Below, piece after piece: positions 5,109 to 43,184 of a stretch of 64,000 nucleotides of DNA (its first letter is position 1; the number at the start of each line of letters is the position of its first letter). A program made the translations under genes and the position numbers. The notes below the pieces were generated by a model that worked only from the letters and a program-made list of their open reading frames with translations, ran no database searches and was not told the origin of the DNA. The stretch covers positions 92,963 to 156,962 of the forward strand of contig JANQNB010000010.1 of NCBI GenBank assembly GCA_028279755.1, read 5' to 3'. The stretch comes from Candidatus Nanoarchaeia archaeon. Lineage in GTDB: Archaea > Nanobdellota > Nanobdellia > Woesearchaeales > UBA525.

Positions 5109-5267
5109 GCTTTCAACCTCGTATCCGTTGTACTGCTGATCTGTGCTGTACAGGGTGTTGGTGACCGCGTACTTAAACTCTCGCCGGTCACAGAGGTAGA
5201 AAAAAGGATAAAATAGTCCCCAAATAATAAAAATAGATAAAAATAATACCCAAAAGAAAGAAGAAGC

Positions 5268-6157: not shown

Positions 6158-6202
6158 TTACAATCAAAGAAAGAAGTCGGAATAAAAAAGTTTCGTAGAA
6201 TG

Positions 6203-6706: not shown

Positions 6707-6882
6707 CACCTCTGTTGTACGGAAGGGTGTTGTATTTAAGAATATTTAGTTGAAGTGCGGAAATCGTCGGAGAATCTTCACGCGCGCGGACGCTCTCCGG
6801 ATTCCTGCCTGGCAAGCGAATCTGATCCGATCACGTGCAAGAATCTTCCGTTTTTCCCGTCGAAAGCGAGTTATAAGCTGGA

Positions 6883-11736: not shown

Positions 11737-11791
11737 GAAGAAGGAGTGGCATCCGAAACATTTATGTATTCGCTCTCCATTTTTAGAGAGT

Positions 11792-21830: not shown

Positions 21831-22691
21831 TTATCGTCGAGAAGCGAGTTCGCGTCCGAGTGTTCTGGGGTCGCGAATTCCCTGCTCGGTGATGACCGCT
21901 GTGACAAAGCTCGGATTGAGGAATTCGAACGCGTTGTTCAGCACGGTCACGTTCTTCGGCGCTTTGTCCCAGACCTCATCGCTGCTCCTGATCTCAAGGT
22001 GCTTCTTGTAGTGCGCTGCGTCTGCGTGCGCATATTTCCACGAGGAAGCGAGCACGTACACCGGGATGTCGCGTTCGTGGGCGAGCTCTGCGATGACTTC
22101 GCTGCCGATCTTGTTGACGATCTTGCCGTCGCTCAGGAGCGCGTCTGCGCCGATGAGCACTGCCTTGCAGTTCTTGACCGCTACCCGTGCAGCGCTGTCG
22201 ACCATGTGCACGACAGGGATGCCGGCTTTTGCAAGGTCCTTTGCTGTTTGCCGTCCCTGGAAACGCGGCCGAGTCTCGGTGTTGTGCACCTCAAAGCGCT
22301 TCCCTTGCTTTTTTGCAGTGAGAAAGGCGTGCACGACCGTGCTGCTGTGGCAGTGTGTGAAGTATGTGCCCTTGTTCTTGATCAGATGGCTGGCGAAATC
22401 AGCGATGCGTTTGTCAGCGCGATCGAATTGTGTCAGCAAGTGCGCCAGGATTTTGTCCGCGTTCTTCGGTTCCGCGTGCTTCAAGAAGTACTCGATCGCG
22501 TTCTGCATCATCGGCTCTGTGCTGCGCGTCTTGAGCAATTGGTTCACGAATTTTTTCGGCACTGCTTTCTTCGTTTCTTTCAGGTATCGTGCGAGCCCCT
22601 TGACAGCGGCGCGCGCGATGTTCTCAGCGCCTTGGATCTTGAGCGACTTGATGTCTGCGACGAGCTGGTCAAACCATTTCACATGCATCAC
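21831..22691 (-). CDS. Ribose-1,5-bisphosphate isomerase (eIF-2B alpha/beta/delta-like; AMP-salvage pathway)
   Basis: …HCHSSTVVHAFL…GIPVVHMVDSAARVAVKNCKAVLIGADALLSDGKIVNKIGS…IPVYVLASSWKY… is the e2b2/MtnA-family fold. It lies directly downstream of AMP phosphorylase and RuBisCO; the start overlaps the deoA stop. Confidence 0.8.
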   Translation of the reverse strand: MMHVKWFDQLVADIKSLKIQGAENIARAAVKGLARYLKETKKAVPKKFVNQLLKTRSTEPMMQNAIEYFLKHAEPKNADKILAHLLTQFDRADKRIADFASHLIKNKGTYFTHCHSSTVVHAFLTAKKQGKRFEVHNTETRPRFQGRQTAKDLAKAGIPVVHMVDSAARVAVKNCKAVLIGADALLSDGKIVNKIGSEVIAELAHERDIPVYVLASSWKYAHADAAHYKKHLEIRSSDEVWDKAPKNVTVLNNAFEFLNPSFVTAVITEQGIRDPRTLGRELASRR

Positions 22692-24178
22692 CGAATCGTG
22701 TAGGGTTCCAGTTCCTTATCGTATTTCTTCACGTGCCGGATCTTCTCGGCGCTGTCAGCGTAGGCGGTGTATATCGGCTCGCCCTTCCTGACCTTGTCGC
22801 CGACGATCTTGTGCAAATACAATCCCGCGCCTTTCGTGATCGGCGCGCCAGCCATGCGCGCGAGCTTTGAGATCGCCTTGTTGTGGATGGCGATGACTGT
22901 CCCTTTTTTCGCCGCTTTCAGCACGAGCCGTTTGCGTCCGAGCCGAAACTGCTCTTTCGGCGGCCCCTGCGCGTCGATGATCTCCTGCATCTTCTTCCAC
23001 GCGCTGCCGCTCTCGAGGATATCCTTCGCAACCTCGTAGCTCGCCTTCTTCGACAGCCTGCCAGCGAATTCCAGGAGCTCTGCCGCGAGCAGTAAGGCTT
23101 TCTCTTTCAGGCGCTGCGGCGCATTCTCCTTGTTCTGCAGCACGGCAAGGACGTCCTTGGCCTCGAGCACCGGACCGATGCCGCGCCCGATCGGCTGGTT
23201 GCCATCGGTGATCATCACGTTGACCTTCATGCCAAGCAGGGTCCCGAGGGACAAGAAGTGCTGCTTGAGCTCCTCTGCTTCGAAGCGCTTCTCTGCCTTG
23301 GCGTGCCTGCCATACGGGATGTCGATGAGCACGTGCGTCGCGCCAACGCTGAACTTCTTAGCCATCACGCTGGAAAGCATCAGGCCCATTGCGTCGATGC
23401 TCATCGGCTTCTCGATCCTGATGATTTTGTCGTCAGCAGGCGCAAGTCCTAATGAGCCGCCCCAGGTCATGCACGCGCCGGTCTTCGCGACAACGTGCTC
23501 CATCTCCTCGAGAGTGAGCTCGACGTTCGTCAATGTTTCCATCGTGTCCGCAGTCCCTGCAGGCGAGGTGATGGCGCGACTGCTTGTCTTCGGCACCGTC
23601 AGTCCGAAGGCTGCGAGTATTGGGATGACGATCATGGTCGTCCGGTTCCCGGGCACGCCGCCGATGCTGTGCTTGTCCACGACTGGCCGTTTCCGCGTCT
23701 TGAAACGCGAGCCGTGGCGCGCGACCGCTTTAGTCAGGCCGGTGATCTCTTCAAGATTGAGTTCCTGCATCGCCACTGCCGCGACAAAATACGTGAGCTC
23801 GATCTCTGTGAGCATGTCGTCCACGATATCCTTGACGATCTTGCTCAGCTCGTTGCTCGTCAGCGTCTTGCCTTCCATCTTCTTCTTGATGAAACGCAGG
23901 CTGTCGGGCTTCGGCGCGGGGTGGAGGTCGACGATATCGTTGTTGTGCGCGCCGAGCGCGTTCGCAGCCTCGAAGAGCACGCCGACCTCGCCGGGCTTGA
24001 CGTTCTCGTCGGTCTTGATCACGTCCACGACCGCGATGATCTTTTTCTTCTTCCCGATTGTCTCGACCATGACACGGTCGCGTGGGTGCAGGTCGTACTT
24101 GATCGCGTCGCGATGGTTGATGATCACGACTTCAGTGAAGCCTGTCTCGATCCTGACATTCCGAACCTTGAGTTTCAT
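22688..24178 (-). CDS. deoA: AMP phosphorylase (thymidine phosphorylase family, DeoA-like)
   Basis: 496 aa. …DKHSIGGVPGNRTTMIVIPILAAFGLTVPKTSSRAITSPAGTADTMETL… is the phosphate-binding/glycosyltransferase family-3 core, with an N-terminal extension typical of archaeal AMPpase. Confidence 0.85.
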   Translation of the reverse strand: MKLKVRNVRIETGFTEVVIINHRDAIKYDLHPRDRVMVETIGKKKKIIAVVDVIKTDENVKPGEVGVLFEAANALGAHNNDIVDLHPAPKPDSLRFIKKKMEGKTLTSNELSKIVKDIVDDMLTEIELTYFVAAVAMQELNLEEITGLTKAVARHGSRFKTRKRPVVDKHSIGGVPGNRTTMIVIPILAAFGLTVPKTSSRAITSPAGTADTMETLTNVELTLEEMEHVVAKTGACMTWGGSLGLAPADDKIIRIEKPMSIDAMGLMLSSVMAKKFSVGATHVLIDIPYGRHAKAEKRFEAEELKQHFLSLGTLLGMKVNVMITDGNQPIGRGIGPVLEAKDVLAVLQNKENAPQRLKEKALLLAAELLEFAGRLSKKASYEVAKDILESGSAWKKMQEIIDAQGPPKEQFRLGRKRLVLKAAKKGTVIAIHNKAISKLARMAGAPITKGAGLYLHKIVGDKVRKGEPIYTAYADSAEKIRHVKKYDKELEPYTIR

Positions 24179-24182
24179 GCCG

Positions 24183-25568
24183 TCATCTCCGCTTCTTCTT
24201 CACCTTCTTTTTGACTTTCTTGGCCTTTTTCTTGATTTTTTTCTTGGGTTGTTCAACGCGCCGCTTGGCTTTGCCCCATTTCATCAATGCGCGTGCCAGT
24301 TCCTGGTGGTCTTTCGCGTACTGGCTCAGGGAGATGCCTTTCTCTGTCGCTTCCCAGGCCTGCCTGATCGCTTTCGCGCCTGCGAACGTGCCGTCCGGGT
24401 GCCCGTGGCAGCCCCCGCCGAACTGCATGACGATGTCAGTGCCCATAAGCCTGACGATCTTGGGAATGCTGAGCGGGCTCAAGCCCCCTGAGGCGACTGC
24501 AAGCACTGGCTTGATCTTGCCCCATTTCTGGTGCAGCACGTGGTGGAACTCGTCAGCGAACACTTCCTGCTTCTCGACCATGCGTTCGATAGCCAAGACT
24601 TCGTCGGGCGCGCCTTCCATCTTGCCGATGTTCGCCGTGCCGATGTGCAATTGGTCGACGCCGATGAGCCGTGAGATCTTCGCGATGGCGAACATGTCGA
24701 TGCCATGGCGCTTGTCGCGCGTGAGCGCGCCGTGCATCGCCCGGTGCGCGTGGATCGCCATCTTGTGCTTCTGGCACCAGTCACGCATGGTCTGCACTGC
24801 AGCCCAGCCCACTGTCAAGATGTCGATCATGATGTACTCGCCGCCGAGCTTCTTCACGAGCTTTGCGCGTCGTTTCATTTCCTCGGTTTCGGCAGTGACG
24901 TTGCACAGGTAGATTTTGATCTCGTTCGTCACCCGTTCTGCTCTGTCTCGTGCCGCGAACGTGAGCTTTGCGCGTTTCTTGAACCGGTTGAAGGACATGC
25001 TCGTGAGGTTCTCGTCGTCCTTCACCACGTCGAGGCCGCCGGTCCATGCTTGCCACGCGACGTCTGCGTGCTGCTCGCTCGTGAGCCCGACTTTTGGCTT
25101 GACGATCGTGCCGAGCAATGGCCGATTCTTCACTTTCGTGATTTTCCTGATGCCTTCGATGCCGAACTGCGGCCCTTTGAAGCTCTTCAGGATCGTGTCG
25201 GTGAACCTGATGTCTTCCAATCGGAGTTTCGCGAGCTCTTTCATGCCGTAGATGTTGCCGGCGATGCTGCTCAGTATACCGGGCATGTTGCCGGGCTCGA
25301 ACAAGTGCTCTGGATACGCGATCTTGACTTCGCCGTTCTTCTTGATCGAGTAGACGTGCGGTTTGAGCGTTTTTGCGATGGTCGGGTTCATGGTCTGGAT
25401 CTTGGTCCACGTGCCGATCGAGCTTTCGCCGGCGATGTATTCTGCCGCGCGCTCTATCGTCGTTCCTTTGATTGGCGTGACGATGTAATTGAGCAGCACG
25501 TCGGTCTTTTTCGGTTTGTATTGTTTGTCCACGAAATCCAGATTGCCGTAGATGGTCATGATTCTCAC
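24183..25568 (-). CDS. rbcL: Ribulose-1,5-bisphosphate carboxylase large subunit, form III (archaeal type), with a 25-residue poly-Lys C-terminal tail
   Basis: …GTIVKPKVGLTSEQHADVAWQAWTGGLDVVKDDENLTS… (active-site Lys in KDDE), …MAIHAHRAMHGALTR…, …VASGGLSPLSIPKIVRLMGTDIVMQFGGGCHGHPDG…; the C-terminus is …QPKKKIKKKAKKVKKKVKKKRR. Confidence 0.9.
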   Translation of the reverse strand: MRIMTIYGNLDFVDKQYKPKKTDVLLNYIVTPIKGTTIERAAEYIAGESSIGTWTKIQTMNPTIAKTLKPHVYSIKKNGEVKIAYPEHLFEPGNMPGILSSIAGNIYGMKELAKLRLEDIRFTDTILKSFKGPQFGIEGIRKITKVKNRPLLGTIVKPKVGLTSEQHADVAWQAWTGGLDVVKDDENLTSMSFNRFKKRAKLTFAARDRAERVTNEIKIYLCNVTAETEEMKRRAKLVKKLGGEYIMIDILTVGWAAVQTMRDWCQKHKMAIHAHRAMHGALTRDKRHGIDMFAIAKISRLIGVDQLHIGTANIGKMEGAPDEVLAIERMVEKQEVFADEFHHVLHQKWGKIKPVLAVASGGLSPLSIPKIVRLMGTDIVMQFGGGCHGHPDGTFAGAKAIRQAWEATEKGISLSQYAKDHQELARALMKWGKAKRRVEQPKKKIKKKAKKVKKKVKKKRR

Positions 25569-28229: not shown

Positions 28230-30491
28230 GTGATGCGGATGCGTCGTGTAATCATTGCATTGTTCATACTTCTCTCATTGCTTGTTTCCTGCTCCTGTGG
28301 TGGACCTGACGCAGGCGGCGGCGTATGGGCTGGTGGTGACGACGAAGAATGGTTGTTCGACGACGAAGCGGAGTATGACGAGCCTGACGATGGCAAGTCC
28401 CGCATTGTCGAAGCCCTGGAGAACGAGGAGATCACTGAAGACGAATATCTGCTCCTCCGTTTCCAGGAGGCATACGAACCGGAAAGCCTTCCTGAAGAGT
28501 ACCAAAGCGAGGACGAGACGACAGCGGTGGACGAGACCTTCCTCTTCTACATGCTGAATCATCGTTGGGATGAACTCGATAGCGCGACCCAGGCTGCGCT
28601 GGAGCAGTATCACCTTCCGGGCTGGGATCCTGGCAGCTATTGGTATGACCCTGAGATGGAAAACGACGAAACCCTGATGGGGACATTTGGCGAAGAAAGC
28701 GAACTCGCTGGCACTGTCGAGAAAACCATCGACTGGCTCACCATCGTGCCGGCAGTGGAAGCGGTGCAGAACAAGCATCCGAGCGGCACGGATTATATGA
28801 TCCGTTTTCAGACAGGCTACAACGCACAAGCACTGATCGTCAAGGCGGCGATGGACAAGGCTTATGCCAAGTTTAAGGCGGCAGGCTTCAAGGAACCGAA
28901 GGATTGGATCTGGGTCCGTCTCCAGGATATCAGCGACGGCAGCCTCGGCGTGGAAGAGCTGGACAACATCATGAATGACGGCGTGCAGCGCTGCACGATC
29001 CGCATCGAGCGAGACTTGTCGAAGAAGCGCATGGAGTCAGTCACTGCGCATGAACTGTTCCATTGCTTCCAGGAATACATGGACCTCATGCCGTATAGCA
29101 GTGAGGAATGGATCTGGGAAAGCACTGCCGTGTGGAGCGAGGAGTTTGTCTATCCTGAGAACAACCGGGAGCATGAATACGATTCCGACATTTTCCCGAA
29201 GCTGAACGCGTGGTTCTTCGACCGGCAAGGCGTTCGGCATTACGGCGCCTATATCTGGTGGTACTATCTCTACCAGGAGGCAGGCAAGAGCCATGTGCCG
29301 ATCAAGAGCATGCTCGAAGCAGCGAAAAAGCCGAACGGCCAGCTGAAAGCGCACAAGGCACGCCCGAAATTCTACGAAGAGCACAAGGAATGGGCCCTCT
29401 GGAATTTGAACATGGAGGCGTTCTACAAGTTCTACAAGGACCATGCGAACATGCCGACGTATATTCCGCAACCTCCCTCTTTGGATAAATCGCGGTTGTA
29501 CAACGACATCACCATGCCGCAGGATCTTGCTGTCGACGCTGGCGGTATGCACTACTACACGTATCGCGTGAACAACGACGTGGACAAGGTGAAGATCAAG
29601 CTCGAAGGCGCGAACAAGAAAGTACACGAGCAGCTCGGCGTCCAATTATTGTACAAGATCGACGACAACTGGCTGTACCTCGACGTCTCTGAGGAAGATG
29701 AGGTAGTATTCTGCAGGAAGCGCGCGAGCGAGCGGGTCAAGTTCCTGATCCTGATCTTCAACAACGCAGACCTTGACGACATGTTCTTCAGCCAGTTCGA
29801 AGTGGATGGGACTGACAAATGTGCGCCAGAATGGAGCGGCTACACCCGCGTGACCTGGACAGACGCAGGATCGGCGAACGACCTGCCGACGCTGTCCGGC
29901 GATCCGACCTCCGGCAATTGGCACGAGCGGGGCTCGTTGACGATCAGGGACACGCTCGTGTACGACAGCGAGAACGACGAGTTCCTCATCAAGAAGACGC
30001 ACTACAGCTATTCGCACAGCGAAAAGCAGACCATCACGTATTCGCGCGATTGCGGCCTGCAGCACGAGATCGATTACGACTCCTACCAGGGCGCTGGCTC
30101 GAAAGAATGGGAGATCGACCCTGGCAAGCTCTGGCAGAGCAATGCACCGACACGTCTGGAGAATTCTGGCGAGGGCCCTGGGGTCTACGAACTGGACCTG
30201 GATCCTGCTGTCGGAACATTCACCAGCTATAGCTTCAAGATCGACCAGCAGAAGACCTGCCCGTTCTGGGGCATCGCGACGCCGGTCGGCGCTGAATTGC
30301 AGCGTCAGGAATGGCACGACACCCACAACTCTGAAGAGGAAACTGTGTTCGGCCCTGATCCGAACATGTACGAATACCGGGTGCAATTGAGCGAGGACCG
30401 GAAGCGGCTCACTGGTCGCGGCGAAGCGAACTTTGTTTACGACGGCAGAGAAGTGCCGGTGTACATCGATGTGGATTACAGCTATGGTTAA
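28230..30491 (+). CDS. Secreted putative zinc metalloprotease (HExxH) / lipoprotein-like large protein
   Basis: N-terminus MRRVIIALFILLSLLVSCSCGG is a signal peptide with a Cys near the cleavage site. 'VTAHELFHCFQEY' is an HExxH zinc-binding motif. An acidic region follows the signal peptide. Confidence 0.6.
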   Translation: MMRMRRVIIALFILLSLLVSCSCGGPDAGGGVWAGGDDEEWLFDDEAEYDEPDDGKSRIVEALENEEITEDEYLLLRFQEAYEPESLPEEYQSEDETTAVDETFLFYMLNHRWDELDSATQAALEQYHLPGWDPGSYWYDPEMENDETLMGTFGEESELAGTVEKTIDWLTIVPAVEAVQNKHPSGTDYMIRFQTGYNAQALIVKAAMDKAYAKFKAAGFKEPKDWIWVRLQDISDGSLGVEELDNIMNDGVQRCTIRIERDLSKKRMESVTAHELFHCFQEYMDLMPYSSEEWIWESTAVWSEEFVYPENNREHEYDSDIFPKLNAWFFDRQGVRHYGAYIWWYYLYQEAGKSHVPIKSMLEAAKKPNGQLKAHKARPKFYEEHKEWALWNLNMEAFYKFYKDHANMPTYIPQPPSLDKSRLYNDITMPQDLAVDAGGMHYYTYRVNNDVDKVKIKLEGANKKVHEQLGVQLLYKIDDNWLYLDVSEEDEVVFCRKRASERVKFLILIFNNADLDDMFFSQFEVDGTDKCAPEWSGYTRVTWTDAGSANDLPTLSGDPTSGNWHERGSLTIRDTLVYDSENDEFLIKKTHYSYSHSEKQTITYSRDCGLQHEIDYDSYQGAGSKEWEIDPGKLWQSNAPTRLENSGEGPGVYELDLDPAVGTFTSYSFKIDQQKTCPFWGIATPVGAELQRQEWHDTHNSEEETVFGPDPNMYEYRVQLSEDRKRLTGRGEANFVYDGREVPVYIDVDYSYG

Positions 30492-30493
30492 GA

Positions 30494-30921
30494 TGAGAGT
30501 ATGTTTGGGACTCCTGGCGATCGCACTACTTGCAGGATGTGTCGATCCCTGTGCTGACGAGCGGCAGGTATTCGATGATTTTGTGAGCGATCCGAACAGC
30601 TTCACCACCTTCAGTGCTGTCGTGACAGTGCATGGTTATTCTCGCGGCTGCCTGTTCGGCGGGTCTGGGGTTGGTGAATGCACGCATGCGCTTGACGTGC
30701 AAGGCCTGAAGGAAAACGCGGGGATATCTCTCACGTCCACAGCATGCAAGTCTTTCGGTCCGTGCACAGACTACAATACGCACATCAACGAGTCGATCGT
30801 CGGCAAGACAGCGAGAATCACGTGCGATACTGAGAACGCTTTGAAGTATTTCAGGCAGCCAATGTCTGACAAGAATCTCATCGCGCGATCGTGCGACACC
30901 CTCGAGATCATTGAGTGCTAA
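30494..30921 (+). CDS. Small secreted cysteine-rich lipoprotein-like protein (~143 aa)
   Basis: Started at MRVCLGLLAIALLAGCVDPC (LAGC lipobox-like), immediately after the stop of the metalloprotease gene. It has 12 Cys. The overlapping minus ORF 30526..31020 is rejected. Confidence 0.5.
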
Positions 30922-30963
30922 CCTCTCGTAAAACATAAATATGTCGGAGTATTCCTGAGCTGC

Positions 30964-31245
30964 ATGGTAGTCACTTCCATACCTCTGGTTTTTCGGGAGA
31001 ATCGTCGCGTGCTTTCTCATCTAACCCGCACGATGGCAGCACGGCCTGAAGGCGTGACACGGGAAGAATTGACTTACCGACTCGAAGAGCAAACAGGATC
31101 CACTCACATTGATGGCACTGCAACAGTCGGAGATCATTTGAAAGGTCTGGAACACGCAGGAGTGTTATATTGCCGTGCAGGAGTGTATCGCCTGAACGAT
31201 CCGGTCCCGACACCACGGCGACGCGTGTTAAGAATTCCACAATAG
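30964..31245 (+). CDS. Small putative winged-helix DNA-binding protein
   Basis: …VLSHLTRTMAARPEGVTREELTYRLEEQTGSTHIDGTATVGDHLKGLEHAGVLYCRAGVYRLND is a MarR/PadR-like wing pattern. Start uncertain (M1 or M24). Confidence 0.4.
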   Translation: MVVTSIPLVFRENRRVLSHLTRTMAARPEGVTREELTYRLEEQTGSTHIDGTATVGDHLKGLEHAGVLYCRAGVYRLNDPVPTPRRRVLRIPQ

Positions 31246-31941
31246 GTTGAAATAGTTCAGATGACTCTTGGTTATTTCTTTGTTCTCTATCTTTATCGCT
31301 AAAGGCTCTTTTGACCATTGAATCAAAAGTGTTGTGTCGCCGTAGATGATCGTTGTTGTGGGATTCGTGAACGCGTCGTCGACGAACTTGTACGAGAGTA
31401 GTTTGCGTTCCTTCACTTTTTCCTTCATGCTTCTGGGAAATATCGAGCATTGCTTGATACCTTTCTCTGCCCGTTCCTTATGCCATAATTCGAAATATGG
31501 CCCGAAGAGCTTCTTGAACTGTAGTTCTGCAGCCATAATGGAGATTGGTTTCTTCTTTTGCAGGATTTCCTCAAAGAGCATCCTCAGTCCTTTCTTGCCG
31601 ACGAATATATTCGCTTCGAGTGGAGGACTGTGTGAAGGTTTCAAGGCTTTGATTTCCTTTTGCAGATTTTTCTTACTCCTTTCCAACTCATCCTTCTGGT
31701 TGTCAAGCAGAGTCAGAAGAGATTCCGGCGCCTTCGCTTCAAACCATTTGACTTTGTTTCTCGTGACAAAGGAAACAACTCCCTTGCGTATCAGCCTATC
31801 AAGCGCCTCATAGACATTTGTCCGGTTCAGCTTTGTCTCAGTGCTCAACTTGTTGGCATAGCTCTTGCCGTTGCTGAGCAGGTGCAGGTAGAGCTCGCGT
31901 TCCGATGGTGAGAAACCGAGATGCGCAAGGCTGTTTTGCAT
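31228..31941 (-). CDS. TrmB-family transcriptional regulator (second copy in the window)
   Basis: Started at MQNSLAHLGFSPSERELYLHLLSNGKSYANKLSTETKLNRTNVYEALDRLIRKGVV… (TrmB wHTH), with a C-terminal TrmB-like effector domain. Lower-GC DNA. Confidence 0.65.
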   Translation of the reverse strand: MQNSLAHLGFSPSERELYLHLLSNGKSYANKLSTETKLNRTNVYEALDRLIRKGVVSFVTRNKVKWFEAKAPESLLTLLDNQKDELERSKKNLQKEIKALKPSHSPPLEANIFVGKKGLRMLFEEILQKKKPISIMAAELQFKKLFGPYFELWHKERAEKGIKQCSIFPRSMKEKVKERKLLSYKFVDDAFTNPTTTIIYGDTTLLIQWSKEPLAIKIENKEITKSHLNYFNLLWNS

Positions 31942-32026
31942 GAGATCGGGATCCTGGGAGAAATTAAAAGTGTTGTGGTGTAGAACCACATCTACTCTTT
32001 AAGAACTTGGAAGCATCCTCCTCCGC

Positions 32027-32992
32027 ATGAACAAAAAAATTGCGATAGGGGCTATCGCTGTTGTGCTTATTATAGCACTATATCTCTTCTACCAGCCAGC
32101 CGATACTGAACCTGCCATGACAGTGGGCTACCTTCCTGTACTCGTCAACCTTCCACTCTTTGTCGCGTTGGAGCAAGGGTACTTTTCACAGCAAGGCATC
32201 GTTGTTGAGGCAGTAGAGGCGCAGTCACCGAACCACGTGGTAGAAGGTATCATCTCTGGCCACCTGGATGGCGCAGGTATACTCGCGTATCCCATACTGT
32301 TCGCTGCGGAAGAAAAGTATCCGGGCGAGCTCAAACTGTTCGCTTCAACTGATGAAACCAACAATGAGTATGTGGCGGCGATCATCGTCCGGAACGACTC
32401 GGGGATAAAAGATATCGCTGATCTGGAAGGAAAGCGCGTGGGAGTATACACAGGATTGGTGCAGGTTCTCTTCCTGAAAGGAATCCTTGCCGGGATGGGC
32501 TTTGATCCTGAATATGTGGAAATCGTCCAGATATCTCCTCGTCTGCAACTCCAAGGCCTTGAAGCCGGACAATATGATGCATTATCGACTGTCGAACCCT
32601 TTGTGACCATTGCGAGAAACAAGAACATCGGACGAGTCCTGGTGAGCAACCCAAGAGTCGTGTATATCCAGGAACCCTTCCCCTCAGTCGCCACTCCATT
32701 ATCAGCAGAGTTCATTGAAGAACACCCGGACATCGCAAAAGCCTATCTCCTGGCGTACCGTGATGCGGTAGAGTATATTCGACAGTATCCTGTTGAGGCC
32801 AAGGGAGTTCTCGCGAAATACACGCCAATCGAAGAAGCTGTTGCCCAGGACGTGCGGCTGCCGAGATTCAATCAGTACGGGGAAGAAGACCGGGAAAATG
32901 TCCAGAAGTATGCGGATTGGATGCTTGAGAATGGCTTATTGGAAAAGAGAATCAACGTCACTTCTCTGTTCGGCACTATGATTCTGGACTGA
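32027..32992 (+). CDS. ABC transporter substrate-binding protein, NMT1/THI5 – SsuA/TauA-like (nitrate/sulfonate/taurine class)
   Basis: N-terminal TM/signal MNKKIAIGAIAVVLIIALYL; …TVGYLPVLVNLPLFVALEQGYF…VEAVEAQSPNHVVEGIISGHLDGA… is the SsuA-type periplasmic binding fold. Confidence 0.75.
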   Translation: MNKKIAIGAIAVVLIIALYLFYQPADTEPAMTVGYLPVLVNLPLFVALEQGYFSQQGIVVEAVEAQSPNHVVEGIISGHLDGAGILAYPILFAAEEKYPGELKLFASTDETNNEYVAAIIVRNDSGIKDIADLEGKRVGVYTGLVQVLFLKGILAGMGFDPEYVEIVQISPRLQLQGLEAGQYDALSTVEPFVTIARNKNIGRVLVSNPRVVYIQEPFPSVATPLSAEFIEEHPDIAKAYLLAYRDAVEYIRQYPVEAKGVLAKYTPIEEAVAQDVRLPRFNQYGEEDRENVQKYADWMLENGLLEKRINVTSLFGTMILD

Positions 32993-32999
32993 GGCGCAC

Positions 33000-33737
33000 A
33001 TGTCATTGCTGGCTGTTTCCAAAGTATGGAAGAGTTTCCCGAAGAAACCAGTCTTGAGGAACATAGATATTGAGATCAAGAAAGGAGAATTTGCCACCTT
33101 GTTCGGTCCAAATGGCTGCGGCAAGACAACTTTATTGAATCTCATTGCCGGAATACTTGAACCGGACAAAGGAGATATTGCAATAGATAACAAGTTGCCA
33201 CAAGAGCAAGTTGTTGGCTATGTCTTCCAGAATTACCGTGATTCTCTGCTTCCCTGGAGGACAAACCTGGAGAACATCGCGTTCCCGCTGGAATTGCAAG
33301 GGGTCGCTCAGGAGGAACGAGCCAGAAAAGTGAAGAAATTAGTGAGAAGCCTGGAGTTAAAAATCCCCTTGCACAACTACCCGTATCAGAGCAGTGGAGG
33401 CGAGCAACAGCTTGTCGCGTTCTTGAGAGAGATCATCACCCAGCCGAAACTCATTCTCATGGACGAGCCATTCTCCTCTTTGGATGCTGAAAGCAGGGCA
33501 TATCTGCGGGTGAAGATACAGGAGATAAGCGAAAAAATGGATCTTACCATTCTCTTTGTCTCTCACGACATCGATGAAACGATCCAATTGGGCGACACTA
33601 TCCTCCTCTTCGACGCCAAGAAGAGAACCATTGCCAAGAAGCTGAGCGTCACTCTTGGCAGACCGAGAACTGAAGAGATCATCTACACAGAACCTTTTCA
33701 CAGGATGAAGAAGATACTGCAACGGTATGAAGAATGA
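33000..33737 (+). CDS. ABC transporter ATP-binding protein (SsuB/TauB-like)
   Basis: Walker A 'GPNGCGKTTLLN', signature 'LSGGEQQ', Walker B 'LILMDEPFSSLD', H-loop 'VSHD'. Confidence 0.85.
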   Translation: MSLLAVSKVWKSFPKKPVLRNIDIEIKKGEFATLFGPNGCGKTTLLNLIAGILEPDKGDIAIDNKLPQEQVVGYVFQNYRDSLLPWRTNLENIAFPLELQGVAQEERARKVKKLVRSLELKIPLHNYPYQSSGGEQQLVAFLREIITQPKLILMDEPFSSLDAESRAYLRVKIQEISEKMDLTILFVSHDIDETIQLGDTILLFDAKKRTIAKKLSVTLGRPRTEEIIYTEPFHRMKKILQRYEE

Positions 33738-34480
33738 AAAAATTCGCTGGTTTGGTAGCGATTCTAATCATATGGTTGATTGCCGTCCAGCTTGAGCTCG
33801 TGAAACCCATTTTTCTTCCACCCTTATCTGACGTTGCACTCTCAGTCAAAGAGTCTGTACTGACACTTAATGGTGTGATAACGATTTTCCAGACACTGAA
33901 GAGAACTATTATCGGTTTCTTCTTCGGGCTCTTGTTCGGAATATCCTTTGGTATGTTTCTCGGGCTGAACAAGAAGCTATACGAAACGTGCGAGTGGTTT
34001 GTCGATTTCTTCAGATCAGTCCCAGTAACAGCAATGTTTCCCTTGTTCTTGATTTTCTTCGGTTTCGGAGACCTGTCAAAAATCGCGATGGGTGCGTGGG
34101 CAAGCGGTTTTGTCATCCTGGTAAACACGATCCATGGCGTCTGGAACGTCAAAAAGAATAGGAAACTAATGGCAATGACCAAAGGCGCGTCCAGGACTCA
34201 GATTCTGACAAAGATAACACTCTTTGAAACCTTACCCTACACGTTCGCAGGAGCGAGAATCGGCATTTCCTGGAATCTCATTGTTGTCATTGTGGCAGAG
34301 ATGTTCATAGGGACGGAACAAGGTATAGGCAAGCAGATCTATGATGCAAGCGTGATATTCGATACTGCAACAGTGCTGGGAATGATATTTGTTATTGGGA
34401 TGATAGGCTATGGTCTTAACCAGATGATGCTCTCGCTGGAAAAGAGAGTCGTGCACTGGGAAGGAAATCCTGCTGCTTGA
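33734..34480 (+). CDS. ABC transporter permease (binding-protein-dependent inner-membrane component)
   Basis: 6 predicted TM segments; the start overlaps the ATPase stop (ATGA). Confidence 0.8.
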   Translation: MKKFAGLVAILIIWLIAVQLELVKPIFLPPLSDVALSVKESVLTLNGVITIFQTLKRTIIGFFFGLLFGISFGMFLGLNKKLYETCEWFVDFFRSVPVTAMFPLFLIFFGFGDLSKIAMGAWASGFVILVNTIHGVWNVKKNRKLMAMTKGASRTQILTKITLFETLPYTFAGARIGISWNLIVVIVAEMFIGTEQGIGKQIYDASVIFDTATVLGMIFVIGMIGYGLNQMMLSLEKRVVHWEGNPAA

Positions 34481-34520
34481 AGAGCGCAAACTATTAGAAT
34501 CCTGACGTCTTCACACGCTC

Positions 34521-35534
34521 ATGCACGAAGCGCTCCATTGGAAAGCGGATGGTGAGACAATCACCTGCGAGCTCTGTCCGCGTTTGTGCGTCTTGAAGGA
34601 TGAGCAGATCGGTGCGTGCGGCGTGCGCCAGGTTCGCGATGGGAAACTGTACGCGATGACGTATGCGAAGCCGTGCGCGATCCACGTCGATCCAGTGGAG
34701 AAGAAACCCTTGTATCATTTCTATCCTGGCGAGCCGATACTTTCCCTTGCAACAATTGGCTGCAATTTGTTCTGCGATTTCTGCCAGAACTGGCAGATTA
34801 GTAAAGAAAGATATGATGATATGTTCGACCAGGAAGAAGTTTCGCCAGAAAAGATCATTCAAATGACAAAAGACGCGGGCTGTCGCCTGATCGCGTTCAC
34901 GTACACTGAACCGACTGTCTATTACGAATACATGCTTGACATCGCGAAATTGGCAAAGAAAGAAGGTATGGAGTGTGTGATAGTCAGTAATGGGTATATT
35001 AGTGAAAAACCCCTCAAGGAATTGATCCCATACATTTCTGCAGCCAACATTGACATGAAAGGCACGAAGGAATTCTACAAGAAACGCTGCAAGGTTCCGG
35101 ATTATGAATTCATCAGGAAAACGATTTTGACATTGAAAGGAGCGGGCGTGCATGTCGAGATGACCAACCTGATCATTCCAGAAGAGAACGACAGCGATGA
35201 AGAAATCGAAAAGATGGCACAATGGGTCGCTGAAAATGTCGGGAAAGACACGCCTTTGCATTTCAGCGCGTTCCATCCCGACTACAAGATGATGGACACG
35301 CCGCACACGCCACCTGCAACTTTGATGAAAGCGCGGAAGATTGCTGCAAAACATGTCGATTACATCTATCTCGGCAACATCACTGGTGCTGACAACGATA
35401 CGATCTGCCCGAAATGCGGCGAACTCTGCATCGAACGCCCAGTCTATGGCGGCACAAGCCATCTGAAAAACGGCGAATGTCCGAAATGCGGGCTTGAGAT
35501 TAACGGACGTTTTTCCGGCAAAGGGAAAAAGTGA
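34521..35534 (+). CDS. AmmeMemoRadiSam-system-type radical SAM enzyme (PflA-like activase family)
   Basis: N-terminal Cys cluster 'CELCPRLCVLKDEQIGACGVRQVRDGKLY' and radical-SAM 'CNLFCDFCQNW' (CxxxCxxC). Length and layout match the TIGR04337-type family. No AMMECR1/MEMO1 partner genes are adjacent. Confidence 0.75.
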   Translation: MHEALHWKADGETITCELCPRLCVLKDEQIGACGVRQVRDGKLYAMTYAKPCAIHVDPVEKKPLYHFYPGEPILSLATIGCNLFCDFCQNWQISKERYDDMFDQEEVSPEKIIQMTKDAGCRLIAFTYTEPTVYYEYMLDIAKLAKKEGMECVIVSNGYISEKPLKELIPYISAANIDMKGTKEFYKKRCKVPDYEFIRKTILTLKGAGVHVEMTNLIIPEENDSDEEIEKMAQWVAENVGKDTPLHFSAFHPDYKMMDTPHTPPATLMKARKIAAKHVDYIYLGNITGADNDTICPKCGELCIERPVYGGTSHLKNGECPKCGLEINGRFSGKGKK

Positions 35535-35592
35535 TTCTGTAGCGCGCAGCGCTTTCGTTTTTTCTTCACAAAGCCATTTCTAAGCTTTCGCA

Positions 35593-37614
35593 ATGCAACT
35601 CCGCATGCGTGCCAGCATACTCTTCGGACTGCTCATCCTGACCGAGCCAATAAGCGCGATGCAGTTCACTGAAGTCATGTACGATCCGCCAGGCAGCGAC
35701 AACAATAAGGAATTCATAGAAATCCACGGCGAGAGCAATCTTTCCGGCTGGATCATCGGCGATCTCGCGAGCAACGACACGCTTGTTCCACTGTTCATCA
35801 ACGCCTCCAGCAACTACTCGATTATTGTTGAAGAAGGCTTTGAGTATGAGAATTTATCCTGTAACGTGTATTCGGCTGGCGCAACGATCGGCAACAACCT
35901 GAACAACGCTGGCGACGCGATCAGGCTCTACGCGCCGAATGGTTCGCTCGCGCTGGAATTCTGGTTCGATGACAGCCTGGCGAAGAACAATGGTATGGCG
36001 CTTGCGCTGCTGAATGGCACGTGGCAGGAAGCGCTGCCAACACCCTGTGTTTTAAATATTTACTATATGGAAAATAATTCAAATATCACAGATTCCAGCG
36101 CGTATGACCTCAGTTTGACCCCCGCATTACCCACGACCATATACGCCGGTGTCTCGTACGACAGCTTGTTTCGCATCAGGAACGAGCTGTACGAGACCGG
36201 CGTTTCGGGCTATGTGAACGCTTCTGCGGTCTACAATCTCTCCCAGAACGGCTCAGTGCTGGTGAATGGCAGCTTCTCTGTAGTCCTCAAGAGCTACAAG
36301 ACAGCAGGCACAGGCAGGCTTCAGATCAATGCCACGGGAAATTACACGCTCTGCGCGAGGATCGCTTGGACCAATGTCACTGATGAGAACCCTGAGAACG
36401 ACGCGATCTGCCAGGAAATCACTGTGCTGGATCCTTTTGCTCAACCCTGCAACGTTTCCCTAGAACTCCAAATCAAAGAACCACAGCTATACTATGAATC
36501 AGGAAATAAAATAAAATTCTGGAACAAGTTATTGCGACATGACAACAATACAGAACTCCCACCCTATATTATCCGCTACGAGATCCAGGACTTGCAAGGC
36601 AAAACAGTGCGAGTCACAACGACAGAAAACCAGAACCTGAAGACCTGGACACCGAAGTTGAAAGATGCATTAGGAGTATTCATACTCACAAACCAATTCG
36701 ACATGCTTGCGTGCAACAATAGTAACAATGACACTCAAAACAAACAACTCATAGTGGTTCAGGGAGAAAAAGTAATTCCTGAGAATGAATCTTCAATTGA
36801 AATCACCAATCTGCACATTCCGAAAAAAGGGTATCGGTTCGGCGACATCGTGAAAGTGAGTATGCATGCCTACAAAGGCAATACTTCAAAGTATAGTATC
36901 AAACTCTACGTCGAGGATGTGAAAGGCCGCAAGGTTTCAAGCACGACATCGTTCCATGCCAAGCAGAAATTCCAAGATTATCAAGTAACTATGCCGATTG
37001 TACTCAAAGATTCGACAAAAAGCGGCCAGCACAAGGTCGTGATTGAAGGTTTAGGCAAACAACGCAGCAAGAATCTATGGATAAAGACGAAGGAAATCAA
37101 AATTGTACAAAATGTAACTGCTCACAAACCCAAGAAACAATTTTCAATCGCGTCTTTCTACACAAGGAGTAAAAAGGCGAACAAGAAAATCAACGTGTAT
37201 GCGAGAATCAAGGGAAAAGGCAACGCAACGCTTGAATTGGTCGGACTTGAAGATCACGATAGCGTTCCAATCAGTATCAACAAGTCATTTTCGTACAAAA
37301 AAGAGGTCGCAATGCAAAACGGTCCAAATGTTTTCCTCCTCAAAATACTCGAAAAAGAAAAAATCCTCGATCAAAGAACTCTCTTGCTCGAAATGGACAC
37401 AGAGATACAAGAAGTCCAGTTCTTTTCAGGAAAAAGAAAAACACTGACTCGCCCCAATTCCCCGAGCCAAGCAACAAACTCCACACCGAACAAGACCTCT
37501 CTCCTCACAGGCGCCGCCACCTACACGACAAAGAGCACGACACGCACCGTGCCAATCCTGCTCGGCATCATCGGCACGCTCCTGCTCGGCATCATCCTTC
37601 AACACAAGCGTTAA
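35593..37614 (+). CDS. Cell-surface protein: signal peptide + lamin-tail-domain (LTD)-like N-terminus + long Asn-x-Ser/Thr-rich region + C-terminal TM anchor
   Basis: MQLRMRASILFGLLILTEPISA is a signal peptide. 'FTEVMYDPPGSDNNKEFIEIHG' is the LTD consensus (…NP.G.D…EFIEL.N). There are more than 30 N-glycosylation sequons. The C-terminal TVPILLGIIGTLLLGIILQHKR is a TM anchor plus basic tail. Confidence 0.6.
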   Translation: MQLRMRASILFGLLILTEPISAMQFTEVMYDPPGSDNNKEFIEIHGESNLSGWIIGDLASNDTLVPLFINASSNYSIIVEEGFEYENLSCNVYSAGATIGNNLNNAGDAIRLYAPNGSLALEFWFDDSLAKNNGMALALLNGTWQEALPTPCVLNIYYMENNSNITDSSAYDLSLTPALPTTIYAGVSYDSLFRIRNELYETGVSGYVNASAVYNLSQNGSVLVNGSFSVVLKSYKTAGTGRLQINATGNYTLCARIAWTNVTDENPENDAICQEITVLDPFAQPCNVSLELQIKEPQLYYESGNKIKFWNKLLRHDNNTELPPYIIRYEIQDLQGKTVRVTTTENQNLKTWTPKLKDALGVFILTNQFDMLACNNSNNDTQNKQLIVVQGEKVIPENESSIEITNLHIPKKGYRFGDIVKVSMHAYKGNTSKYSIKLYVEDVKGRKVSSTTSFHAKQKFQDYQVTMPIVLKDSTKSGQHKVVIEGLGKQRSKNLWIKTKEIKIVQNVTAHKPKKQFSIASFYTRSKKANKKINVYARIKGKGNATLELVGLEDHDSVPISINKSFSYKKEVAMQNGPNVFLLKILEKEKILDQRTLLLEMDTEIQEVQFFSGKRKTLTRPNSPSQATNSTPNKTSLLTGAATYTTKSTTRTVPILLGIIGTLLLGIILQHKR

Positions 37615-37639
37615 AAACACCACGTTCTTCGCACTTGTC

Positions 37640-41347: not shown

Positions 41348-42073
41348 TTATTTCACGATCACCATCCCAAGATTCGTTCTCGGTTGATCATAGTCTCCCG
41401 CGATGAACTTGTCCATAATCCATTTCTGGTAATACTGATATGCAAGACGATCTGCGTTGAACATTTCAGGCGCTGCAGTCACAAAGGCGAACTCTTCAAG
41501 GGTGTAAGGGGTGCCGATCTCGATGCGTTTGGGAAGCGTGAGGAGTTTCCCCGCTTGTCGAGCGATGTATCCTGGTCCGAAACGACGCAGCCGGTCCAGT
41601 GTGAGTCGTTGCCTGAACTGTCCCATCAAGACATGCTGTGTTTCGCTCTGAACTGCGCGCCTGAATGCAGCATTTGACTGGTACAGTGCATGATGATATG
41701 CCAGCTGTTTCTGATATTCTGGGTGTTGCTCAATTTCTGGCCAGCGATGCACGGTGAACTTCTTTGGGAGTTCTCCGCTATAGAGTTTCTTTGCCATGTT
41801 GATGAGCCGGTTTCCTTCTAAACGCGCTTTTGCTGCGATGGGTTTGCTGATGCCAATCGCGCGATAGGTATGCTCTGTTGGTGTGTCAGGGATAAAGAGT
41901 TCTATACGATCAAACAAGCAATCAGCTATGTCCAAGAAGGCTGCAACCCTATCTCGCTTGAAGTAACCGTTGCCAGGGCACAAGGGAACAAGCCCAACGC
42001 CCTTGTTATTGATGATGTCATAGCCTGTCTCGTAAGCTGGCCCTCGCAATCCGCACATAACATCTATAGTCAT
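41348..42073 (-). CDS. tRNA-dependent cyclodipeptide synthase (CDPS, AlbC-like) homolog; Cys at the position of the catalytic Ser
   Basis: Started at the ATG (MTIDVMCGLRG…) inside the GTG-initiated track ORF. '…GVGLVPLCPGNGYFKRDRVAAFLDIADCLFDRIELFIPDT…' parallels AlbC '…ALIGISAGNSYFSQKNTVMLLQWAGQRFERTDVVYVDT…'. '…EEFAFVTAAPEMFNAD…' parallels AlbC '…YVLAEAPLFADS…'. Size (~240 aa) fits the family. AT-rich gene next to an Lrp regulator. Confidence 0.5.
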   Translation of the reverse strand: MTIDVMCGLRGPAYETGYDIINNKGVGLVPLCPGNGYFKRDRVAAFLDIADCLFDRIELFIPDTPTEHTYRAIGISKPIAAKARLEGNRLINMAKKLYSGELPKKFTVHRWPEIEQHPEYQKQLAYHHALYQSNAAFRRAVQSETQHVLMGQFRQRLTLDRLRRFGPGYIARQAGKLLTLPKRIEIGTPYTLEEFAFVTAAPEMFNADRLAYQYYQKWIMDKFIAGDYDQPRTNLGMVIVK

Positions 42074-42137
42074 TACTGAATAGTAGATATTCGACACTAT
42101 AATAAATATTTCATTCGAAAATACGACAAATGAGGAA

Positions 42138-42150
42138 TTTTTATATAATA
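42138..42150 (+). promoter_or_regulatory. TATA-box-like element (TTTTTATATAATA) ~25 bp upstream of the Lrp-family gene start; the intergenic region is shared divergently with the CDPS-like gene
   Basis: Seen directly; matches the archaeal TATA consensus. Confidence 0.4.
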
Positions 42151-42170
42151 AATGCTATATTAATCGTAAA

Positions 42171-43184
42171 ATGGACAAGCGAGACCTCCAATTGATGGAA
42201 ATCCTCGCGCAAAACTGCCGGATTTCCCACACCACACTAGCACAAGCGCTCAGAGTCTCGAAAGACACAGTCGCATACAAGATCAAGAAGCTGGAGGAAA
42301 CTGATTACCTTACCCAATACGTCCTGTTCATTGATGCGCGCGTCCTCGGACTAACAAGATATCACTTGCTGATCCAGTTCGACGCAGGTATAGACAAGCA
42401 AGCAACGTACGACAAGATCATCAACCATAAAAATGTCATGTGGGTGAACACCTTCATCGGTCGCTTCGACATCCAGATCATAGTCGATGCTCATGACGGC
42501 TTTCATCTCAACAAGATACGGGAAGAGCTCTTCGAACTCTGCGAACATAAGGTGAAGGAATACATTGTGTTGACCTGTCTCTACGATCTCGAATTCACGC
42601 AGCTCAACCCAGTGCTTGATCTGAAAACACCTTTCCAAAAAAAACTTGATCATTCTTTCAGCGAACTCCTCACGACAAGGAATTTTCCTGTCAAACCCAC
42701 GTTTGTCAAATACACACCAACAAAGACTGAAACTGAAATCCTGAAAATCCTAGCAGATAATCCTCGTGAATCATTGACAAACATCAGCAGACAACTGAAA
42801 ATCGACAGGAACACAGTAAAACAGCGTATCATCAATCTGATCAAGAATAAAGTCATCATCAACTTTGGCGCAATTCCAAACTTGTCAAAGCTGGGTTTCG
42901 TAACATATTACATGCTGGTGAGAATTGCGCAAGATACTCCTTATGAGGTCTTCAAGAAGCCCTTTACCAAGCTGCAGAACATCTTCTACGCTGGCAGGAT
43001 GATTGGTGATTATGACATGATCCTCTATCTCAACGCACGAACTCCTGAAGAGCTCAACTCCAGCATCGAATTGTTCAAAGCAGAGATAGAACAGCACATT
43101 GTCCACTACGACCTCCTTGTCCAAGACAAAGTGCATTACTGGCGCCAGTTCACGCCCGGAATCTATGAAGGATTGCAACATTAA
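42171..43184 (+). CDS. Tandem Lrp/AsnC-family transcriptional regulator (two HTH+RAM modules fused)
   Basis: Module 1: MDKRDLQLMEILAQNCRISHTTLAQALRVSKDTVAYKIKKLEETDYL… + RAM-like. Module 2: …TETEILKILADNPRESLTNISRQLKIDRNTVKQRIINLIKNKVI… + RAM-like. Both are AsnC-type HTH signatures. Confidence 0.75.
   Translation: MDKRDLQLMEILAQNCRISHTTLAQALRVSKDTVAYKIKKLEETDYLTQYVLFIDARVLGLTRYHLLIQFDAGIDKQATYDKIINHKNVMWVNTFIGRFDIQIIVDAHDGFHLNKIREELFELCEHKVKEYIVLTCLYDLEFTQLNPVLDLKTPFQKKLDHSFSELLTTRNFPVKPTFVKYTPTKTETEILKILADNPRESLTNISRQLKIDRNTVKQRIINLIKNKVIINFGAIPNLSKLGFVTYYMLVRIAQDTPYEVFKKPFTKLQNIFYAGRMIGDYDMILYLNARTPEELNSSIELFKAEIEQHIVHYDLLVQDKVHYWRQFTPGIYEGLQH

Follow-up and report, generated by a model that had tools for sequence, protein, structure and literature searches.

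A low-GC stretch of a Woesearchaeota genome that probably joins an inserted TrmB-ABC transporter cassette to resident radical SAM and surface-protein genes

Six genes in a segment of low GC content at 31,100-37,620 are the subject of this analysis. They lie in a window of 64 kb, the window being the whole stretch of DNA that was analysed, and they encode a TrmB-family transcription regulator, the binding protein, ATPase and permease of an ATP-binding cassette (ABC) importer, a radical SAM enzyme of the AmmeMemoRadiSam type (rSAM) and a surface glycoprotein with a lamin-tail domain (LTD). The locus raises two questions. Did the low-GC stretch enter the genome as one block of separate origin, and does the rSAM, which stands behind a transporter and not beside AMMECR1 and Memo, work in a new substrate context? 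Both had been suggested in an earlier note on this DNA, whose gene identifications all proved correct. The host of the window is a DPANN archaeon of the Woesearchaeota group, and its rSAM, binding protein and LTD protein have their closest named relatives in 'Candidatus Woesearchaeota archaeon' or 'Nanoarchaeota archaeon'.

We consider it probable that the low-GC stretch consists of two independent units that abut, an inserted TrmB-ABC cassette and the resident rSAM and LTD genes, and we prefer this to a single imported block, which appears unlikely. The first unit (31,228-34,480) would be a self-contained, horizontally mobile uptake cassette with TrmB divergent from a three-gene importer, and it would have been inserted between the upstream genes and the promoter of the rSAM gene. 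The second unit (34,521-37,614) would be resident core-genome DNA, with the rSAM gene plus a separately promoted gene for the LTD surface protein. A substrate link between the transporter and the rSAM is not supported.

Composition and gene order of the low-GC stretch

The GC content is 47.3% at 31,100-37,620 and 55.0% in the remaining window, and no other 6.5-kb segment of the window is lower. In 1-kb steps it is 0.475 ± 0.023 inside the stretch and 0.550 ± 0.030 outside; the values per kilobase are 0.456-0.503 for 31-38 kb and about 0.54-0.60 over most of the other DNA. The drop begins at about 31.1-31.25 kb and finishes at about 37.4-37.55 kb. Windowed GC thus confirmed the lower-GC block that had been placed at 30,950-37,620, with fitting coordinates; the contrast is real, but the estimate of 'mid-40s vs high-50s' was slightly overstated. 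Codon usage deviates as well, as the earlier note had proposed to check. GC at third codon positions (GC3) averages 0.706 ± 0.095 in host genes and is 0.54-0.60 in the six genes (z -1.2 to -1.8), whose codon-usage distance from host genes is raised.

The two halves of the stretch have almost the same GC content, 46.8% for the cassette and 47.4% for the rSAM and LTD genes. Their tetranucleotide signatures, normalised for composition, are not the same. That of the cassette correlates with the host at r = 0.72 (z about -2.5) and is the strongest outlier of the window, and that of the rSAM and LTD genes correlates with the host at r = 0.79-0.81 (z about -1.2) and is a mild outlier. Between the two halves r is 0.69, which means that they are no closer to each other than each is to the host.

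Comparison with relatives separates the halves further. There are no TrmB and ABC genes at this site in seven relatives (L001, L003, L005, L007 and L094-L096), and the rSAM and LTD genes are present in them and syntenic. In L001 the order is DUF7523, a 258-aa (amino acid) gene, a 765-aa HExxH protein, rSAM, a 577-aa LTD homolog, MJ0538, ScpB and a hydrolase. L003 has ParA, rSAM, a 709-aa LTD homolog, MJ0538, ScpB, the hydrolase, rubrerythrin and GyrA, and L007 has DUF7523, a 253-aa gene, rSAM, a 515-aa LTD homolog, inositol monophosphatase (IMPase), YdjM, MJ0538 and ScpB. The pair is kept in L005 though both flanks differ, with phenylalanyl-tRNA synthetase (PheRS) before rSAM and unrelated genes after the 724-aa LTD homolog. 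In the more distant L094-L096 the order is rSAM, a DAGK_cat-like gene, the LTD homolog, sometimes an insert, then MJ0538 and ScpB. Searches with tblastn showed that the large proteins downstream of the relatives' rSAM are homologs of the window LTD protein, and that the window DUF7523, 753-aa protein, IMPase, YdjM, MJ0538, ScpB, hydrolase and GyrA match the relatives in the same order. Because the pair is kept in the seven relatives, in all but L005 together with MJ0538 and ScpB, the rSAM and LTD genes appear to be resident and to belong to an old, vertically inherited Woesearchaeota gene order.

The cassette is found elsewhere at unrelated sites. In L008 a unit with TrmB on the minus strand and binding protein, ATPase and permease on the plus strand stands between ribosomal protein S3Ae (rpS3Ae) and GyrB, and in L011 the TrmB-ABC unit stands between an M50 peptidase and glycine-cleavage genes. 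A contig of the Candidate Phyla Radiation (CPR), the Magasanikbacteria-like L097, carries it at 5,133-8,557 beside Lgt, Zip and FUR. A metagenome scan revealed the same arrangement in L100-L102 and L115. The four proteins co-vary, with 55-76% identity to those of L008-L013, lower identity to those of L100-L102 and 24-48% to the CPR copy. Close homologs of the binding protein (at least 47% identity) form about 50 clusters in Woesearchaeota, Altiarchaeota and CPR bacteria; beyond these clusters there are two single outliers at 38% and 31%, and then ordinary NitT/TauT proteins at 32% or less. Among about 20 other cassette loci that were fetched, none has an rSAM gene nearby, and no close copy of the cassette was found in viral contigs.

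Because the TrmB-ABC cassette is absent from this site in seven relatives and found at unrelated sites elsewhere, it is best read as inserted here, in this lineage only. DPANN archaea and CPR bacteria appear to have exchanged the unit, together with its operator described below, as a module for nutrient uptake. As to the direction of the transfer, the nearest relatives of the cassette are in genomes of 26-38% GC, and a donor of lower GC would account for its composition. The separate origin suggested by the earlier note is therefore supported for the TrmB-ABC half, at 31.2-34.5 kb, which is missing in the relatives, found at unrelated sites and strongly deviating in tetranucleotides. It is not supported for the rSAM and LTD genes, which keep their order with MJ0538, ScpB and the hydrolase and deviate only mildly.

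The right-hand junction of the insertion is also visible. A conserved promoter box of the rSAM gene, AAACTATTAGAAT, lies at 34,488-34,500 on the plus strand. The stop codon of the permease is at 34,478-34,480, and the box begins 8 nucleotides (nt) later, about 21 nt before the rSAM ATG. L007 and L005 have an identical box equally far from the ATG, and L001 has the variant ATCTTTTAGAAT. Similarity to the relatives starts exactly at this box, and the sequences upstream of it are unrelated. Since similarity resumes at the box, the insertion would have ended just before the rSAM promoter and left it intact.

That no transfer took place seems hardly credible. On that account the cassette would be ancestral here and lost in the relatives, and the low GC would come from local mutational or amino-acid bias. 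The lack of flanking mobility genes, tRNA and repeats at the cassette would agree with this, and so would the other low-GC patches in the window. However, it needs several independent and precise deletions in seven genomes, with the rSAM promoter spared each time. It does not agree with a cassette at unrelated sites in other genomes and in a bacterium, and GC3 and the tetranucleotide signature deviate too, beyond the codon positions that are driven by amino acids.

A more serious alternative, though we think it unlikely, is that the whole 6.5 kb entered once, for example when homologous recombination replaced the resident rSAM and LTD alleles by those of a lower-GC Woesearchaeon whose own rSAM already had the cassette upstream of it. 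GC and GC3 are uniformly low in all six genes, and the edges at the 3' ends of the TrmB and LTD genes are sharp, with the next gene beyond LTD (IMPase) back at GC3 0.69. The surface protein is the fastest evolving, with 36-47% identity to its homologs against 54-78% for most neighbours, which is typical of strain-exchanged genes. The best argument for a single block is that the GC3 of the rSAM and LTD genes in the relatives is about equal to that of the neighbouring genes, and not below it. Against one block, the cassette stands beside rSAM in no other genome, among about 20 cassette loci and among the 7 related and 80 broader rSAM loci, the latter as far as the matches listed go. No phylogenetic discordance is visible, because the rSAM ranks the relatives by identity (L007 > L001 > L005/L003) as MJ0538 and ScpB do. 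The tetranucleotide signatures of the halves are no more alike than each is to that of the host, and GC is patchy within the rSAM and LTD genes (0.39-0.55).

Several findings weigh against the two-unit reading that we prefer. Nothing of the usual mobility hallmarks marks the cassette: there is no tRNA in the window, the direct or inverted repeats flanking the cassette are short and at chance level only, and no integrase or transposase domain was found among the genes scanned with Pfam. No genome was found nearer than about 75-78% protein identity, and the timing and polarity of the insertion consequently rest on parsimony. Finally, the rSAM and LTD genes have GC (47.4%) and GC3 (0.58-0.60) as low as the cassette. 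As their GC3 in the relatives matches that of the neighbours, resident status alone leaves this composition unexplained, and the low GC of the rSAM and LTD genes is not fully accounted for.

The TrmB-ABC cassette and its operator-like palindrome

The TrmB-family regulator is encoded at 31,228-31,941 on the minus strand. Residues 21-88 match PF01978 with 49.1 bits (gathering cutoff, GA, 25.6). The open reading frame (ORF) is open to 31,989, and its homologs begin near the Met at 31,941, which gives a length of about 237 aa. It is 62-66% identical to the TrmB genes beside homologous transporters in L008-L013, L100 and L115. Scores against the TrmB and TrmBL1 equivalog models are far too low, 28 bits for NF040851 (cutoff 600) and 25.5 bits for NF047390 (cutoff 650). 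The Pfam sugar-binding C-terminal domain was not detected, and a sequence search found no solved structure at E<=0.01. A second TrmB-family paralog is present at 11,687-12,535 (PF01978, 48 bits), and it is closer than the cassette TrmB to TrmB genes that stand beside the rSAM block in L094 and L096.

The importer is transcribed divergently from TrmB, across an intergenic region of 85 nt, and shows the complete NitT/TauT layout: genes for a binding protein of the NMT1/SsuA fold, an ATPase and a permease are contiguous or overlapping. The substrate-binding protein (32,027-32,992, plus strand) has the NMT1/THI5/SsuA fold (NMT1 84 bits, NMT1_2 82 bits) and carries an N-terminal membrane helix. The ATPase is at 33,000-33,737 on the plus strand (PF00005, 102 bits). 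Its best NCBIfam match, SaoA, gives 182 bits, under the cutoff of 360, and the cassette ATPases of L008 and L011 share 55-62% identity with it. The permease (33,734-34,480, plus strand; PF00528, BPD_transp_1, 69 bits) starts within the end of the ATPase gene, with an overlap of 4 nt at the ATPase stop. With the permeases of L008 and L011 it shares 63% identity, and it falls below the cutoffs of all SaoP, TauC and NtrB-type models.

What does the transporter import? The binding protein scores 131 bits against TIGR01728 (SsuA_fam), under the cutoff of 163.5, and its scores against the TauA, SaoX, PhnD and nitrate-type models are far lower and also below cutoffs. Its AlphaFold2 model has a pLDDT of 94.1, and Foldseek with this model gives near-equal scores for ThiY (3ix1, a binder of formylaminopyrimidine), TauA (6ssy), Thi5, the thiamin-bound 4nmy and SsuA, with E about 1e-17 for ThiY, TauA and SsuA. 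Taking the PDB sequence search together with Foldseek, the protein ties among binders of sulfonate, taurine, thiamin-pyrimidine, thiamin and nitrate/bicarbonate. Nor did a permissive comparison of 30-39 kb with Rfam reveal any riboswitch, such as a thiamin pyrophosphate (TPP) riboswitch ahead of the transporter. Because the subfamily models stay below their cutoffs and the comparisons end in ties, 'sulfonate/nitrate-type' should be read as a family label only. Given the minimal biosynthesis, it is plausible, as a speculation, that the solute is a vitamin precursor or a small organic anion.

The known three-component importers SsuABC, TauABC, ThiXYZ and NrtABC have the same layout and the same binding-protein fold, and the Pfam NMT1 models pass their cutoffs. 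The window binding protein differs from them in being under every curated subfamily cutoff, equidistant from the sulfonate, taurine, thiamin-pyrimidine and thiamin binders, and placed in the clade of about 50 clusters that is limited to DPANN and CPR organisms.

The intergenic region between TrmB and the transporter contains an operator-like perfect palindrome, TGTGGT-GTAGA-ACCACA, at 31,974-31,990. It sits 8 nt upstream of a TATA-like box, CTTTAAGAA. No other place in the window matches it exactly, and a search that tolerated one mismatch found 2 sites where 0.07 would be expected. An element of the same 6-N5-6 form is found in the same place with perfect arms in L011-L013, L100 and L115, and with 1-2 changes in L008 and L102. 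The CPR locus L097 has a degenerate copy, and there an archaeal-type TrmB travels with the ABC cassette in a bacterium. This suggests that the whole regulated unit was transferred between domains.

Regulators of the TrmB family recognise 6-N5-6 repeats in the promoter of the transporter encoded next to them. In Thermococcales, TrmB is found with a trehalose/maltose ABC transporter, and its operators are 6-N5-6 repeats such as TATCAC-N5-GTGATA. By analogy, the window TrmB may bind TGTGGT-N5-ACCACA beside the TATA box of the transporter. The imported solute, or a derivative of it, would then be the signal by which TrmB controls the transporter and probably its own gene. The window locus is like the Thermococcales loci in having a TrmB-family winged helix-turn-helix protein beside an ABC importer and a 6-N5-6 repeat at the transporter promoter. 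It differs in the size of the regulator (about 237 aa against about 340 aa for TrmB/TrmBL1), which fails the equivalog models, in the NitT/TauT (SsuA/NMT1) type of the transporter, which is not a sugar CUT1 importer, in the sequence of the operator and in its distribution in DPANN archaea and CPR bacteria.

Two small ORFs at 30,484-31,245 lie between the 753-aa HExxH protein and TrmB, and both are genome-specific. The first (30,484-30,921, plus strand; MVKMRVCLGLLAIALLAGC...) encodes a small lipobox-type secreted protein with a host-like GC of 0.53. It has no Pfam match and no counterpart in L001 or L007, and it is outside the low-GC stretch and inside the 4-kb interval that the relatives lack. 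The second (30,964-31,245, plus strand, 93 aa) is a possible winged-helix ORF with a weak match to HTH_20 (20 bits, below GA). It converges on the 3' end of TrmB with an overlap of 18 nt. Its overall GC is near that of the host, its GC3 is 0.43 and its codon usage is strongly atypical, and it is doubtful that it is a real gene.

The radical SAM enzyme and the LTD surface protein

The rSAM gene is at 34,521-35,534 on the plus strand. Residues 8-334 of the 337-residue product match TIGR04337 with 363.8 bits (cutoff 220), and the assignment to this family made in the earlier note is borne out. The CX3CX2C motif is formed by C81, C85 and C88 (GCNLFCDFC). In an alignment of 20 sequences the cysteines of the N-terminal cluster (C16, C19, C23, C33) and of the C-terminal cluster (C296, C299, C320, C323) are invariant. 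The protein is 62-78% identical to its closest Woesearchaeota clade and about 50-56% to other Woesearchaeota. For the relatives whose contexts were read, the identities are 78% (L007), 75% (L001), 66% (L005), 65% (L003) and 50-53% (L094, L095 and L096). A sequence search gave no solved structure at E<=0.001. Judged by these features of its sequence, the enzyme looks like an ordinary member of the TIGR04337 family.

The earlier note had regarded this rSAM as an 'orphan' of AMMECR1 and Memo. We built hidden Markov models (HMMs) of AMMECR1 and Memo locally from the neighbours of rSAM genes in 80 loci, with the representatives verified by Pfam; these loci are the matches listed from a profile search of genome contigs, with 42-49% identity and mostly bacterial. 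The models gave no match at E<=10 in six-frame translations of the 64-kb window, none at E<=10 in L001-L013 and none at E<=1e-3 in L094-L098. Neither partner was found within 6-10 kb on either side in the seven related Woesearchaeota, and regular expressions for the AMMECR1 motif RGC[IVLM]G and the Memo motif PHAG found nothing coding in the window. Among the 80 matches listed, either partner is within 10 kb on either side in 27-28 loci, and among the archaeal matches listed it is nearby in only 1 of about 10. It means that non-adjacency is normal. The rSAM indeed has no adjacent AMMECR1 or Memo, but this is common, being the state of about two thirds of the loci and nine of ten archaeal ones among the matches listed. 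AMMECR1 (arCOG01336) was reported in 429 of 524 archaeal genomes and described as linked to a different gene (PMC6393860).

Could the transporter nevertheless import the substrate of the rSAM or its precursor under TrmB control, in a role of the enzyme independent of AMMECR1 and Memo? The genes are on the same strand, the gap between permease and rSAM is 40 nt, and neither partner was found in the 64 kb. We regard this functional unit as the least probable of the explanations. Only this genome has the two side by side, the rSAM still has its own promoter with the box seen in relatives without the cassette, the enzyme is an ordinary family member with all conserved cysteines, and being without nearby AMMECR1 or Memo is the majority state. 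The hint at a new substrate context, drawn earlier from the adjacency, is accordingly not upheld.

The predicted transcripts are consistent with separate expression. A terminator-like hairpin with a T-run, AGCGCGCAGCGCT + TTCGTTTTTT, follows the rSAM stop codon at 35,541-35,563 on the plus strand. L007 and L001 conserve the T-run and a TATA-like box (...GCCATTTCTAAG...) that precedes the LTD gene. So the rSAM is probably monocistronic and the LTD gene looks separately promoted, and this weakens the case for an operon-type link of the rSAM with either the transporter or the LTD protein.

A different neighbour is found in a subgroup of Woesearchaeota. A DAGK_cat/YegS-like gene, related to diacylglycerol kinases (DAGK), is present in L094 (7,002-8,147), L095 (7,002-8,027) and L096 (7,026-8,141), in each case with a 4-nt overlap at the rSAM stop codon that would couple translation of the two. 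The gene is missing from the window, from the closest relatives and from the 80 broader rSAM loci among the matches listed. Because the gene is absent elsewhere among the loci examined, the link between rSAM and the DAGK-like gene is specific to this subgroup.

In the literature, 'AmmeMemoRadiSam' was found as an annotation label only. A 2019 proposal of Burroughs and colleagues is said to link Memo-AMMECR1-rSAM systems to nucleotide-base or isoprenoid modification. A DAGK-like neighbour would fit an rSAM that modifies an isoprenoid lipid or a lipid-linked carrier; this fit rests on that proposal and is offered as a lead. Since the only conserved neighbours of the rSAM are the DAGK-like lipid kinase and the glycosylated, membrane-anchored LTD protein, the Woesearchaeota rSAM might conceivably act in a cell-envelope pathway without AMMECR1 and Memo, which we hold to be rather doubtful. 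Compared with the three-gene AmmeMemoRadiSam systems, the window rSAM is a clear member (364 bits, all cysteine clusters). It differs from them in that AMMECR1 and Memo were not found in the 64 kb around it and in that its conserved neighbours are the LTD protein and, in distant Woesearchaeota, the DAGK-like kinase.

The LTD-domain surface glycoprotein is encoded at 35,593-37,614 on the plus strand. Its match to PF00932 has 27.7 bits, under the GA of 34.3; of 27 full-length homologs, 18 reach E<=1e-3 with the LTD model (best 3e-10), and precomputed Pfam gives PF00932 for the near-identical P0181. The protein had been described as laden with sequons and anchored by a C-terminal transmembrane (TM) segment, and this description is correct. 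Its 27 N-X-S/T sequons compare with 8.5 ± 2.6 in shuffled sequences (z about 7), and it has an N-terminal hydrophobic leader and a TM segment at residues 651-670 followed by QHKR. The AlphaFold2 model (pLDDT 79) shows a signal helix, an LTD beta-sandwich at 24-147, four more beta-sandwich domains, a disordered Ser/Thr-rich stalk at 613-650 and the TM helix. We also looked for a function from this fold; Foldseek found only generic arrays of macroglobulin/Ig-like domains with TM scores <0.2, which is uninformative.

Full-length homologs are found only in Woesearchaeota and Nanoarchaeota. They share an N-terminal INEIMYNPxGxDNNKEF motif, and the family has a conserved membrane-proximal TG-x-VVYES motif ahead of the TM segment. 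Homologs with 36-47% identity are directly beside rSAM in L001, L003, L005 and L007 and one gene further in L094-L096. In the two closest relatives (L001 at 7,535-9,268 and L007 at 2,655-4,202) the homologs are without the first about 160 residues, which hold the LTD domain, and the LTD module would therefore have been gained or lost within the family.

LTD-domain surface proteins and archaeal C-terminally anchored surface glycoproteins have the same design of signal peptide, N-terminal LTD, tandem beta-sandwiches, Ser/Thr-rich stalk, TM segment and basic tail, with the same strong enrichment in sequons. Unlike in these, neither PGF-CTERM nor another curated sorting-signal model matched the window protein, and the TG-x-VVYES motif is its family's own among LTD surface proteins. 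The sequon enrichment holds across the family (z 4-9) and is also found in other surface proteins of the window; it is an ordinary property of the envelope proteins of this organism. One of these proteins, at 48,368-52,453 on the minus strand, has 1,361 aa with 78 sequons against 31 expected and no Pfam match, and is probably another major surface glycoprotein.

Significance and other genes of the window

Every gene of the stretch belongs to a recognised family, and TrmB with an ABC importer is a known design, so the stretch is overall ordinary. Mildly new are the compact cassette of regulator, operator and transporter that is restricted to DPANN and CPR organisms, the Woesearchaeota gene order that ties the rSAM to a DAGK-like kinase and an LTD surface protein, and a compositional island that straddles an insertion and resident genes. 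Since this 'island' is probably not one functional or evolutionary unit, the unsupported inference of a new rSAM substrate is removed. A compact, self-regulated uptake cassette of ultra-small archaea and bacteria may be a route to what these auxotrophs scavenge, and the order of rSAM, DAGK-like kinase and surface protein is a modest lead to the function of the AmmeMemoRadiSam family.

Archaeal housekeeping genes are also present in the window. At 14,115-19,471 on the minus strand there are four tandem paralogs of 414-473 aa with a GC of 50-53%. The only domain recognised in each is a C-terminal PEP-utilising-enzyme mobile domain (86-96 bits), the N-terminal part being without a known domain, and L008 has a similar gene of 519 aa close to its cassette. 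An archaeal AMP-salvage cluster follows at 21,831-25,568 on the minus strand. It is composed of an IF-2B-family gene (ribose-1,5-bisphosphate isomerase-like), an AMP/thymidine-phosphorylase-like gene and a RuBisCO large subunit of form III type (321 bits).

Besides the stretch at 31,100-37,620, the window holds other low-GC patches. A second and sharper one, with a GC of 42-47%, is at 41,348-43,184. It contains a gene of the cyclodipeptide synthase (CDPS) family at 41,348-42,097 on the minus strand (Pfam CDPS 62 bits, GA 27) and, divergent from it at 42,171-43,184, a regulator with two AsnC-type helix-turn-helix matches. The patch is at a break of synteny, and in L003 the slot between the hydrolase and GyrA is occupied by rubrerythrin. 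A CDPS in a DPANN archaeon seems unusual.

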